Below, piece after piece: positions 14,387-17,459 of a stretch of 56,143 nt of DNA. The position numbers were made by a program, and so were the translations under genes. Within the stretch, counting starts at the first letter, position 1; every line of letters starts with the position of its first letter. The stretch is taken from the NCBI GenBank assembly GCA_049697595.1, contig JBAVWC010000438.1:1-56143 (forward strand), read 5' to 3'. The notes beneath the pieces were generated by a model. The model was not told the origin of the DNA. It saw nothing but the letters and a program-made list of their open reading frames with translations, and ran no database searches. The stretch comes from Alphaproteobacteria bacterium. GTDB taxonomy: Bacteria; Pseudomonadota; Alphaproteobacteria; UBA9219.

Positions 14387-14415
14387 TTGACGAGAATAAT
14401 CTAAAAGAATATGAT
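14387..14415 (+). promoter_or_regulatory. sigma70-type promoter for the exonuclease/RecT operon
   Basis: TTGACG (14387-14392), a 17-nt spacer, then TATGAT (14410-14415), about 30 nt before the ATG at 14447. Confidence 0.6.
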
Positions 14416-15595: not shown

Positions 15596-16465
15596 ATGAC
15601 CGAACCAGCACCACAATCCAAGCAATTAACCCCAGTAGGCGAACTCTGCACAGGGTTAAATAAGATCGAGGGGATGCTTGAAAAGGCACTCCCGAAAGGC
15701 GTAACCAAGGATAAATTCATGCGTACTGCCTTGCAGGGAATACAAACTCACAAAGACAAAGACAAGTTAGCAAGTGCAGATCGTGCTAGTTTCTATCTTG
15801 CGGTTCAACGTGCGGCTAGTGACGGTCTATTGCTAGACGGTCGTGAAGCTGCTCTGGTGGTTTTTGCTAATCAAGTGCAATTTATGCCAATGGTGCAGGG
15901 CTTGATTAAGTTAGCCCGTAACTCCGGCGACATTAAGAACATCGAGGCCGCAGTTGTCCACCGCCATGACCGTTTTACCTATATTATGGGTGAGGACGCA
16001 TCACCAAAGCATGAGGCTGATTGGTTTGCAGATGATCGTGGAGAGCCAATCGGAGTATGGGCGGTTGTTACCCTATCGTCTGGCGAGAAAATACCGGCGA
16101 TGCTTTCCAAGTCAAAGGTTATGCGCGTGGCTGCGAAGTCAAAGAATGGCTATCAGTATGACCCAACCAAGGGCGATGCTTGGGAGGAATGGTGGAAGAA
16201 AACAGCCGTCAAGAACGTGCTGAAATACGCGCCACGCAGCACAGAGTTGGACAGGGCATTGCAGCAGGACGAGGAAGAGCCGATTGATGTTACGCCGACA
16301 CCACCAGCAGAAGTCGTTGCAGCTATTGAACCTCCACGTAAGAGGAAGGCTGTTGAACCTCCACGTAAGAGGAAGGCTGTTGATGTTGTTACCGAAACGG
16401 CTAATCCTACCCCAGAACCACCACCGCAGACCATTGATGGGAGTTTTGAGGAAGTGCCAATATAA
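15596..16465 (+). CDS. recT: RecT-family single-strand annealing protein
   Basis: 289-aa ORF. FMRTALQGIQ...SFYLAVQRAASDGLLLDGREAALVVF...MPMVQGLIKLARNSG is typical of RecT. It follows the YqaJ exonuclease. Confidence 0.85.
   Translation: MTEPAPQSKQLTPVGELCTGLNKIEGMLEKALPKGVTKDKFMRTALQGIQTHKDKDKLASADRASFYLAVQRAASDGLLLDGREAALVVFANQVQFMPMVQGLIKLARNSGDIKNIEAAVVHRHDRFTYIMGEDASPKHEADWFADDRGEPIGVWAVVTLSSGEKIPAMLSKSKVMRVAAKSKNGYQYDPTKGDAWEEWWKKTAVKNVLKYAPRSTELDRALQQDEEEPIDVTPTPPAEVVAAIEPPRKRKAVEPPRKRKAVDVVTETANPTPEPPPQTIDGSFEEVPI
16328..16381 (+). repeat. perfect 27-bp tandem duplication inside the recT 3' end
   Basis: GAACCTCCACGTAAGAGGAAGGCTGTT occurs twice back to back, encoding EPPRKRKAV twice. 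Confidence 0.9.
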
Positions 16466-16555
16466 TGACCAAACAACAGATTGATCTAATCCTCTGGAAA
16501 TTAATAGGAACCAACCAACCCCTAACCCTCCAATACCACTATAAAAGGATGACCA

Positions 16556-16807
16556 ATGACAAACGCCGCCGAGAACTTAGACGACTTGACCATTCCGCAA
16601 TTCTTACAGAGGAAAGCAAACCCTATGCCTCATATCGAACATACACAGCCGAAAGACACGCCAGAGATCATCCAAGAGCCTCAACCGGAAATCACCATCG
16701 ACATGATTATGGAGCAGATCAAGAAGCTGTCTGCCAAGAGGGATGAAATTACCACGATGCTATCGGGCTTGAAGAAACAAGCTCAGCGCATGATCGGCCA
16801 ACTCTAA
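16556..16807 (+). CDS. small protein with FtsZ C-terminal-tail-like N-terminus (83 aa)
   Basis: ORF track. The N-terminus reads LDDLTIPQFLQRKAN. One junction-motif copy lies at 16518-16532. Confidence 0.6.
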   Translation: MTNAAENLDDLTIPQFLQRKANPMPHIEHTQPKDTPEIIQEPQPEITIDMIMEQIKKLSAKRDEITTMLSGLKKQAQRMIGQL

Positions 16808-16968
16808 TGGCAAGATACTCAGTAATGGTCAAATACACCATGCAACGCAAAATCAACGTCTATGCAGATGATGAAACAGAGGCCGAAGAAAAGGCTTGCG
16901 ATGTTGTTCTCGGCTGGAAAGACGTTGATGATGCAGAAGCCGTGAAAGGCGAAACAGAGGAAATATGA
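16807..16968 (+). CDS. hypothetical acidic protein (53 aa)
   Basis: Hand translation: MARYSVMVKYTMQRKINVYADDETEAEEKACDVVLGWKDVDDAEAVKGETEEI. TAATG and ATGA overlaps with its neighbours. Confidence 0.5.
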   Translation: MARYSVMVKYTMQRKINVYADDETEAEEKACDVVLGWKDVDDAEAVKGETEEI

Positions 16969-17459
16969 ACTACAACGAAATAGATACCGGCATATCTCAA
17001 ATCGCCATCGACATGGATAAGACGTGTCCTGAATGTGGTGAGAAGGGTGTTACCGGAAACGGCGTATGTCTTTCGTGCATGGTGAAGATTGTTAAAAATG
17101 AACGCATGAAAACAACCGAAGGCATGAAGGCACAGTTAAGAGTATTGGAAATTCAGGAAAACACGAGGAACAAAATGAGAGCAGCAATGGGACATAATAG
17201 CGATAAAGCCGATCCAGAAGAAACCGGCGGCATCTCCGGCGAACGTCTCATGTCGTTTGTCAAGCGCATCGAAAGTTTGAACGCCGACAAGGAAGCTATC
17301 TGTGATGACCTGAAAGAAGTATTTGCGGAATCCAAAGCCGTAGGATTTGAGAACAAAATCATTCGCCAAGTCGTGAAACTGCGGAAACTCGACGTTGAAA
17401 AACGCCGCGAGAACGAGGAACTCCTATCTCTGTATATGTCAGCTATTGGTATGGAATAA
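16965..17459 (+). CDS. gapR: zinc-ribbon / GapR (DUF2312) fusion protein
   Basis: 164-aa ORF. The N-terminus has CPECG...CLSC. The C-terminal GERLMSFVKRIESLNADKEAICDDLKEVFAESKAVGFENKIIRQVVKLRKLDVEKRRENEELLSLYMSAIG aligns along its length with Caulobacter GapR. Confidence 0.82.
   Translation: MNYNEIDTGISQIAIDMDKTCPECGEKGVTGNGVCLSCMVKIVKNERMKTTEGMKAQLRVLEIQENTRNKMRAAMGHNSDKADPEETGGISGERLMSFVKRIESLNADKEAICDDLKEVFAESKAVGFENKIIRQVVKLRKLDVEKRRENEELLSLYMSAIGME

Follow-up and report, generated by a model that had tools for sequence, protein, structure and literature searches.

The window analysed here is the complete 56,143-bp contig C438, which was binned in a 3.2-Mb, 510-contig alphaproteobacterial metagenome-assembled genome (the bin). 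Its plus strand holds an early phage gene block in which a promoter-like site at 14387 is followed by genes for a YqaJ exonuclease and RecT, a gene for an 83-amino-acid (aa) protein, a 53-aa open reading frame (ORF), a zinc-ribbon-GapR gene and two GcrA-like genes (Table 1). The subject of this report is the 83-aa protein, translated from the ORF at 16556..16807 (+) as MTNAAENLDDLTIPQFLQRKANPMPHIEHTQPKDTPEIIQEPQPEITIDMIMEQIKKLSAKRDEITTMLSGLKKQAQRMIGQL, and a short peptide near its N-terminus, LDDLTIPQFLQRKAN, that resembles the C-terminal peptide of FtsZ. A preliminary description of this DNA had placed the ORF at these coordinates, beside GapR and GcrA-like genes in an early block; reading of the sequence and the ORF list bore out the coordinates, and GapR and two GcrA-like genes were identified as its neighbours. 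The FtsZ-like peptide that it reported is also there, at residues 8-22 rather than 8-23.

An FtsZ-tail-like peptide in a small phage protein

The FtsZ of the bin ends in QEDLLEIPAFLRRQNNH, encoded on contig C212. The ftsZ gene of the bin is split, in that the GTPase domain and long linker run off contig C316 (L001) and the last 64 codons, with the tail, begin C212. The core of this tail is present in 68 of 68 complete FtsZ tails from relatives of the bin FtsZ, most of which read ..DLL[DE]IPAFLRRQ[AST]N(H), with a few variants (TPAFLRR, DVPAFLRRK, IPTFLRR). The tails of 30 further alphaproteobacterial genomes agree with this consensus, and the alphaproteobacterial form that the preliminary description had given was correct. 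Its claim of a shared register also held: aligned at IP, the window peptide agrees with the DDLLDIPAFLRRQAN consensus at 9 of 15 positions, the terminal AN among them. The FtsZ-type core consensus used for testing, [DE]-[IV]-P-x-F-[LM]-[RK]-[RK] with acidic or Leu residues before it, was found both in the window peptide, through its core DDLTIPQFLQRK, and in the logo of its family.

A position-specific scoring matrix (PSSM) of 14 phage motifs retrieved the FtsZ tail as its best non-self match among 3.16 million six-frame residues of the bin (22.5 bits, the next match scoring 19.5). With a PSSM of FtsZ tails, the window peptide scored 18.4 bits, a value matched or exceeded at only 2 of the 2.82 million positions elsewhere in the bin, one of them FtsZ, and the peptides of two other family members (L010 and P0007) were exceeded only by FtsZ itself. 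Comparison of the family profile with 25 FtsZ tails by hhalign returned a probability of 93.15% (E 3.1e-7, 14 columns). Additionally, a hidden Markov model (HMM) of the whole family, run over 401 alphaproteobacterial genomes in six frames, found only the window and one FtsZ C-terminus (EEDDLEIPAFLRRQKN). Because the two PSSM tests, hhalign and the family HMM agree, the likeness to FtsZ is confirmed beyond chance, and the window peptide is a genuine copy, kept under selection, of the FtsZ C-terminal peptide. In FtsZ, a disordered linker leads from the tubulin-like GTPase to the peptide at the extreme C-terminus; in the 83-aa protein the motif is at residues 8-22, there is no tubulin domain, and the disordered linker follows the motif.

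The gene caller used for the assembly predicted only an internal 60-aa form starting at Met24 (P0001), which omits the motif, and translation of the motif was therefore the first question. Word-based and exhaustive profile searches of public metagenomes yielded a family of 59 distinct small proteins, all of them metagenomic. The motif is kept in orthologues of related phages, a point on which the preliminary description had staked its proposal: it is present in 46 of the 59 members and is retained down to about 38% identity, and most of the 13 members without it are calls of 44-59 aa that start just before the helix. The family consensus is L-[ED]-I-P-x-F-L-[RKQ]-R-x-K, with logo counts, in the 46 members, of L31, E/D25, I42, P46, F41, L44, R/K/Q38 and R43. 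In the corrected alignment P14, F16, L17, R19 and K20 are at least 90% conserved, as strongly as the C-terminal helix, and the linker between motif and helix is hypervariable in length and sequence.

At nine loci the codons of the conserved residues vary (Ile ATT/ATA/ATC, Pro CCG/CCA/CCT/CCC, Phe TTC/TTT, Leu TTA/CTG/CTC, Arg AGG/CGC/CGT/AGA/CGA/CGG), and this synonymous variation at residues that stay the same points to purifying selection on the frame of the motif. Across loci, the upstream ATG has its own Shine-Dalgarno (SD) sequence or overlaps the stop of the previous gene; it is preceded by AAGGAG or AAGGAA in L002, L008, L013 and L009 (AAGGAG in L002 and L008). Several of the short gene calls (P0001, P0003, P0015 and P0018) are internal-start calls, a start that gene callers picked repeatedly, and the frames of L010 and L012 extend upstream to an ATG and encode HLEIPDFLRRNKE and EEIPDFLKRKG, respectively. 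Altogether, these comparative data indicate that the motif peptide is translated and under selection.

Modelling with AlphaFold2 (AF2) and the family alignment predicted disorder in the N-terminal half and a single helix spanning residues 48-82, with a predicted local distance difference test (pLDDT) score of about 90. The score is 56-57 for residues 21-40 and rises toward the helix, and the monomer model has a 3-residue helical turn at 15-17 (QFL, pLDDT about 70). The preliminary description had called the protein small and helical, which suits the modelled helix but not the N-terminal half. As modelled, the protein falls into three parts: the motif comes first, a disordered linker that varies across the family follows, and a heptad helix of 35 residues ends the chain. 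The helix is the most conserved region of the family. Its hydrophobic positions (I48, I51, I55, L58, R62, I65, L69, L72, A76, M79 and L83, as read from the sequence) follow a regular 3-4 spacing over about five heptads, which makes a coiled coil or a partner helix likely.

In eight of the nine loci with DNA, AAGGAG, AAAGGA or a similar sequence is followed at 6-9 nucleotides (nt) by an in-frame ATG or GTG right after the motif. Similarly, a Met stands at +8 to +12 from the motif Phe in 28 of the 46 members, with a peak at +9/+10 in 21 of them. These observations suggest a second initiation site giving a motif-less, helix-only isoform; we infer the use of this start.

The 83-aa protein matched no Pfam family at E 0.1 and no named PHROG family, the only PHROG matches being to unnamed families over the helix (E 0.016-0.09). 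A PDB profile search with the family gave chance coiled-coil matches and no relative. Searches of the region and the protein (blastn/tblastn) against 50,697 phage records found no cultured relatives, and the motif was absent from the genes upstream of GapR in phages of Caulobacter, Agrobacterium, Rhizobium, Ruegeria and Azospirillum. Scans of genome-contig and metagenome-contig collections with the family alignment found nothing, and no prophage copies were found in 400 other alphaproteobacterial genomes. By these searches the 83-aa protein is a member of no described family. A literature search on a phage FtsZ-tail mimic, on 'IPAFLRR' and on phage GapR or a GapR partner found no published description.

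Two variants of the gene were noted within the family. In a related phage (L004 6001-6213, L005 864-1076) the first 38 codons are kept and their product is 100% identical (P0005); past a mosaic junction in the linker, the gene continues as an unrelated 32-aa tail, and no GapR follows. Two distant members (P0036 and P0050) have an extra N-terminal MC[FL]CNP.NR..NCGSPEC before the motif, a four-Cys mini zinc-binding pattern; in the window a zinc ribbon is carried by GapR.

Linkage to GapR and other carriers of the peptide

The genetic linkage of the family gene to phage GapR is obligate. A GapR (PF10073) gene lies 3' of the family member on the same strand in 13 of 13 neighbourhoods with called genes, with 0-1 gene between them, and in several pairs the stop and start overlap. 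In L201 the order is reversed but the gene is still adjacent to GapR, making 14 of 14 neighbourhoods read. The chromosomal gapR of the bin has no such partner gene. The 83-aa protein is itself no detectable homologue of GapR, as it has no PF10073 match to the GapR/DUF2312 profile at E 0.1. Its heptad-type pattern is like that of GapR helix 1 (48-72 vs 95-119); the comparison of the two by hhalign, with 10 neighbouring GapR proteins, was not significant (probability 0.9%, E 0.062), and homology of the helices was rejected on this result.

Natural fusion proteins of the form GapR-helix-turn-helix (HTH)-acidic linker-...DTLEIPPFLRRVRAA occur in L163/P0063 and P0071, so that in some GapR proteins the peptide is part of the same chain. 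On a Rosetta-stone argument, what these fusion GapRs have in cis would be supplied in trans by the small protein. The GapR-HTH family at large (L163 2417-2941; P0063-P0074) has a disordered acidic linker and a C-terminal tail, which reads LEIPPFLRRVRAA in two members and is degenerate (IPAHLRR, FPAHLRR, IPPALRR) or an unrelated AAKKARAA in others.

When 151 alphaproteobacterial genomes were scanned with a strict DNA pattern for L-[DE]-I-P-x-F-L-R-R, it matched in 102 of them, and the reversed-pattern controls matched in none. The strict motif is single-copy or absent in 148 of the 151 genomes, and was FtsZ wherever checked (30 of 30 single-copy loci, and more besides). The second match in one further genome is a 43-codon noise frame. 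Two genomes (G006 and G155) have five extra copies each, all on ParB_N/HTH_ParB proteins of about 1,000 aa that end in ...LLEIPAFLRRG and lie in regions resembling integrative and conjugative elements (ICEs), with DUF2958, UmuC and helicase genes. In these ICE ParB-like proteins (L126-L137, L140 5968-9033) a long acidic/Pro-Ala linker precedes the tail peptide, a layout that mirrors the FtsZ C-terminus.

In a scan of IMG/VR viral contigs, 80 loci were read. Among the matches listed, the peptide occurs in tails or linkers of MT-A70 and N6/N4 DNA methyltransferases and of DUF5131, DUF1376 and DUF3310 proteins, and at the N-termini of other small proteins, some with an AT-hook after it; the in-frame peptides typically have an acidic DDG or DDL lead-in. 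The caveat in the preliminary description that IPxFLRR-like peptides occur on other alphaproteobacterial proteins was thus well placed, these being proteins of mobile elements. GapR is encoded as well in at least 14 of the 80, in each case on the same strand, and in at least 12 of the 80 a motif-bearing methyltransferase-type gene is just downstream of GapR. MT-A70 genes with DDGLDIPAFLRR tails directly follow GapR and overlap its stop in L159 (4212-5591), L161 and L187, and at least nine further loci among the matches listed have a motif-bearing methyltransferase gene within about 1.1 kb of GapR on the same strand. Since many of the GapR-encoding loci are related, they were counted as at least six independent architectures and not fourteen.

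On the phage MT-A70 and N6/N4 DNA methyltransferases the peptide is of the (D)DGLDIPAFLRR type and sits in C-terminal tails or interdomain linkers; the loci with such genes downstream of GapR, among the matches listed, are L159, L161, L187, L165, L157, L153, L177, L202, L158, L150, L186 and L194. The small proteins of L152, L185 and L219 start with LEIP[AE]FLRR and continue directly into an AT-hook-like KRGRPRK. A tag common to several proteins of this phage was considered and rejected, as the motif occurs once per contig in the contigs of the family.

Possible readers and competing explanations

The bin is taken as the host only tentatively. DNA common to the contig and the rest of the bin amounts to three short matches (114 nt at 78%, in gapR; 123 nt at 76%; 43 nt at 86%), the contig has no terminal repeat, and its guanine-plus-cytosine content is 48% against 53.5% for the bin. 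The gapR match, between window positions 17311-17422 and positions 977-1088 of bin contig C226 (G000), pairs the phage GapR gene with the chromosomal gapR; its 78% identity over 114 nt is a weak hint that the bin lineage is the host or the gene donor. Proteins that read the FtsZ tail include FtsA, ZipA, FzlC, MinC, ZapD and SlmA-type proteins; the bin encodes FtsA, and no MinC was found in it. In Caulobacter the FtsZ C-terminal conserved (CTC) peptide binds membrane anchors, with FzlC-type anchors in this class (10.1101/632075). Because the strict motif in host chromosomes belongs to FtsZ, the reader in an uninfected cell would read FtsZ, and the reader of the phage peptide would therefore most simply be an FtsZ-tail binder. 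The same observation speaks against a hub that serves many host proteins, the beta clamp for example.

Our preferred, still tentative reading is that the 83-aa protein is a two-module GapR-associated adaptor with an FtsZ-tail-like docking peptide, belonging to an uncultured alphaproteobacterial phage group. Such a protein would probably plug into host proteins that read the FtsZ tail. GapR is a DNA-encircling nucleoid protein, and the C-terminal helix would most likely pair with the plausibly co-transcribed phage GapR, self-associate, or both, with the N-terminal peptide occupying the FtsZ-tail site on host FtsA and FzlC-type anchors. We infer, in short, that the helix binds GapR and that the motif is read by whatever reads the FtsZ tail. 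Many copies of the FtsZ tail would thereby be placed on GapR-coated DNA, with the outcome that the membrane anchors of the Z ring are titrated and division is delayed, that phage DNA is tethered to FtsZ anchors, or both. The helix-only isoform from the internal start could dilute the docking peptides per complex. Phages are known to inhibit FtsZ (lambda Kil) or to employ the Z ring as a scaffold for replication (phi29 p1) (PMC3961180). The titration outcome has a precedent in free FtsZ C-terminal fragments (residues 354-383), which are inhibitory in E. coli in vivo (PMC10769210), and the tether outcome has one in phi29 p1 at the Z ring (PMC3961180).

Several observations weigh against an adaptor of this kind. 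The phage peptide is N-terminal with more protein after it, whereas the FtsZ peptide is at or near a free C-terminus, and the residue after P, which is A or T in FtsZ, is free in the phage family. Relatives of the GapR fusions have His or Ala in place of the tail Phe (IPAHLRR, IPPALRR), which would not suit the FtsA/ZipA-type pocket known from E. coli. DNA methyltransferases that carry the same peptide have no obvious reason to visit FtsZ membrane anchors. Additionally, the pairing of the helix with GapR rests on synteny and one fusion family, the host assignment comes only from binning and the 78% nucleotide identity over 114 nt of gapR, and one member (L011) is truly without the motif at the DNA level, where a stop leaves no room for it.

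The preliminary description had proposed that a decoy could block divisome assembly. In the free-decoy model weighed here, the protein would act alone, as a soluble FtsZ-tail competitor that blocks Z-ring anchoring and division during infection, and its adjacency to GapR would reflect only common timing of expression. This draws on the same motif evidence as the adaptor reading (PSSMs, hhalign and logo) and on the inhibitory action of free FtsZ C-terminal fragments in E. coli (PMC10769210); small division inhibitors are encoded by many phages (PMC3961180), and a coiled-coil helix could provide multivalency against polymeric FtsZ. As stated, however, it leaves unaccounted the invariant, translationally coupled adjacency to GapR (14 of 14), the GapR-tail fusion, the conserved internal start and the presence of the same peptide on methyltransferases and ParB-like proteins, which are unlikely division decoys. 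Single FtsZ-tail peptides also bind weakly, at about 20-35 uM for ZipA as quoted in PMC10769210. We consider a free decoy improbable. The tie to GapR, the methyltransferase, ParB-like and AT-hook carriers and the motif-less isoform argue instead for a docking or adaptor role in a DNA-bound complex, with competition against FtsZ as a possible consequence rather than a demonstrated purpose.

The main rival of the adaptor reading is that GapR itself is the reader, in which case L[DE]IPxFLRR would recruit partners to GapR-bound DNA, and the likeness to FtsZ would be convergence or an undescribed contact between the FtsZ tail and GapR, an SlmA-like nucleoid link. We know of no FtsZ-GapR contact. 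The clustering of peptide genes with GapR is what this explanation would predict, both in this family (14 of 14 neighbourhoods) and for the MT-A70 genes after GapR (at least three overlapping its stop and at least nine more within about 1.1 kb); all carriers are DNA-binding or DNA-modifying proteins, and a peptide gene adjoining the gene of its reader is a common arrangement. The fusions, however, put the motif and its supposed reader in one chain, an arrangement better suited to a cargo with an address label, though it could also be autoinhibitory. GapR and methyltransferase genes adjoin in many early modules anyway, and with many loci coming from related phages the count overstates their independence; the ICE ParB-like carriers do not adjoin GapR, and FtsZ tails are conserved far beyond GapR-bearing bacteria. 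On this evidence we rate a role of GapR as the reader as unlikely.

A reading through another host hub appears quite improbable. The ClpX/ClpA machinery degrades FtsZ in Caulobacter, and the likeness to FtsZ could reflect common use of this recognition machinery or of the beta clamp, in keeping with carriers that are mostly replication or DNA-modification proteins. The strict motif is nonetheless not found on host clamp clients (single or no copy in 148 of 151 genomes, and FtsZ wherever checked), and the linkage to GapR would be left unexplained. A beta-clamp motif (Q-L-[SD]-L-F or Q-L-x-L-x-L) was looked for; the peptide lacks the Q-L-[SD]-L-F consensus, the family logo has no Gln-Leu start, and with the strict motif being FtsZ in hosts the clamp was considered an unlikely reader. 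Chance likeness, or an untranslated region upstream of a gene that really starts at Met24, is scarcely credible and already contradicted by the comparative data. The 60-aa product of the gene caller (P0001), the good SD sequence at the internal start and the lack of room for the motif in L011 would fit it, against the synonymous variation with conserved residues at nine loci, the retention of the motif in 46 of 59 members and to about 38% identity, the conserved SD sequence and ATG at the upstream start, and the hhalign E of 3e-7.

A wider proposal, which we regard as doubtful, is that mobile elements of Alphaproteobacteria share L[DE]IPxFLRR as a general address label, a copy of the FtsZ tail that plugs DNA-bound proteins into one host site, either the FtsZ-tail readers or GapR. 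Its carriers may comprise phage GapR partners, GapR fusions, MT-A70 and N6/N4 methyltransferases, AT-hook proteins and ICE ParB-like proteins.

Among known systems, the comparisons suggest that the 83-aa protein works most like the FtsZ tail itself and the laboratory FtsZ C-terminal fragments. With the alphaproteobacterial CTC peptide, also termed the conserved C-terminal peptide (CCTP; DDLL[DE]IPAFLRRQAN), it shares the core L-[DE]-I-P-x-F-L-R-R, an acidic lead-in, a basic trail and a location in a disordered region, and the window copy ends in AN. It differs in being N-terminal and attached to a 35-residue helix rather than to a tubulin-like GTPase; in the phage family, moreover, the residue after P is free, and Q, K or N is frequent at the first basic position. 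The fragment tiling of E. coli FtsZ found that a free tail peptide (354-383) suffices for growth inhibition in vivo, presumably because it fills sites on FtsA, ZipA or FtsZ (PMC10769210); those fragments are laboratory constructs, whereas the 83-aa gene is a natural phage gene with a predicted oligomerisation or partner helix of its own.

Lambda Kil, T7 Gp0.4, P1 Icd and Rac/Qin DicB are likewise small early phage proteins, and are aimed at the FtsZ system (PMC3961180; PMC11897509; PMC13423816). They have no sequence similarity to the 83-aa protein in Pfam or PHROGs, bind FtsZ itself or MinC/ZipA without imitating the tail, and are not linked to a nucleoid protein in these accounts. The Bacillus phage phi29 p1, a small protein at the Z ring that organises viral DNA replication, resembles the tether version (cited in PMC3961180). 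It differs in being membrane-associated and in binding assembled FtsZ, while the phage protein described here would imitate the tail on a DNA-binding partner, and the two have no homology.

Short-linear-motif mimicry is a major strategy of eukaryotic viruses and is barely documented in phages. Here, a phage family appears to copy, and keep under selection, the peptide by which FtsZ contacts its anchors and regulators, and does so in genetic coupling to a nucleoid protein. The case would belong with viral mimicry of host docking peptides and with phage interference in the divisome, and it may plausibly lead on to something more general. Should the peptide bind FtsA or FzlC, it would constitute a new brake on division, or a new use of it, that imitates the FtsZ tail rather than attacking the polymer, and would offer a natural, mutable probe of tail-binding sites in Alphaproteobacteria. 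Divisome or membrane readers would mean that mobile DNA is physically coupled to the division apparatus. If the peptide binds GapR, a hidden contact between chromosome structure and the Z ring would come to light, joining nucleoid and Z ring in the manner of SlmA in a class that has neither SlmA nor Noc. That methyltransferases and ICE ParB-like proteins carry the peptide too suggests a common docking code.

Surroundings of the gene

Table 1. Features of the 83-aa gene and its neighbourhood, in window positions
Feature	Position	Strand	Evidence
Promoter-like TTGACG-17-TATGAT heading the exonuclease-RecT-ORF83-GapR-GcrA block	14387..14415	+	consensus match only
SD-like AAAGGA, 6 nt 5' of the ATG at 16556	16544..16549	+	sequence reading
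Coding sequence of the 83-aa protein (long isoform), stop codon included	16556..16807	+	ORF list
FtsZ C-terminal-peptide-like motif LDDLTIPQFLQRKAN, residues 8-22	16577..16621	+	logo, codons, hhalign, PSSM
Internal SD-like AGAGGAAA then ATG (Met24); candidate second start, 60-aa isoform without motif	16607..16627	+	
Pro/Glu/Thr-rich disordered linker, variable, residues 25-47	16628..16696	+	alignment, AF2
Conserved C-terminal helix, residues 48-83, about 5 heptads, IDMIMEQIKKLSAKRDEITTMLSGLKKQAQRMIGQL	16697..16804	+	AF2, alignment
53-aa ORF between the 83-aa gene and GapR; its ATG overlaps the stop of the 83-aa gene	16807..16968	+	ORF list
Phage GapR homologue with N-terminal zinc ribbon, presumed partner	16965..17459	+	PF10073 GapR_DNA-bd, E 3.9e-25

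No terminator-like site was found on the plus strand between 14000 and 18700, which makes co-transcription of the block plausible. The 53-aa ORF between the 83-aa gene and GapR gave a DpnD/PcfM-like match in a profile search that was weak and below threshold. A 59-aa ORF occupies its position in L008, and at most other loci there is no ORF of this type and the family gene directly abuts GapR.

A further small ORF (16465-16746, +) begins on the RecT stop codon and, in a different frame, runs across the start of the 83-aa gene. It had no PHROG match and encodes a conserved peptide of about 30 aa, ..QQxDLxLWxLxGxxQ...L.Y.YKxM, that recurs in L002 (3901-4089), L004 (5898-6140 and 6499-6690) and L013 (about 100-200), and that once precedes a different gene in the related contigs. 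The tail past the conserved part varies in length and looks unconstrained. The ORF also contains, at 16518, what the preliminary description called a 'junction motif'.

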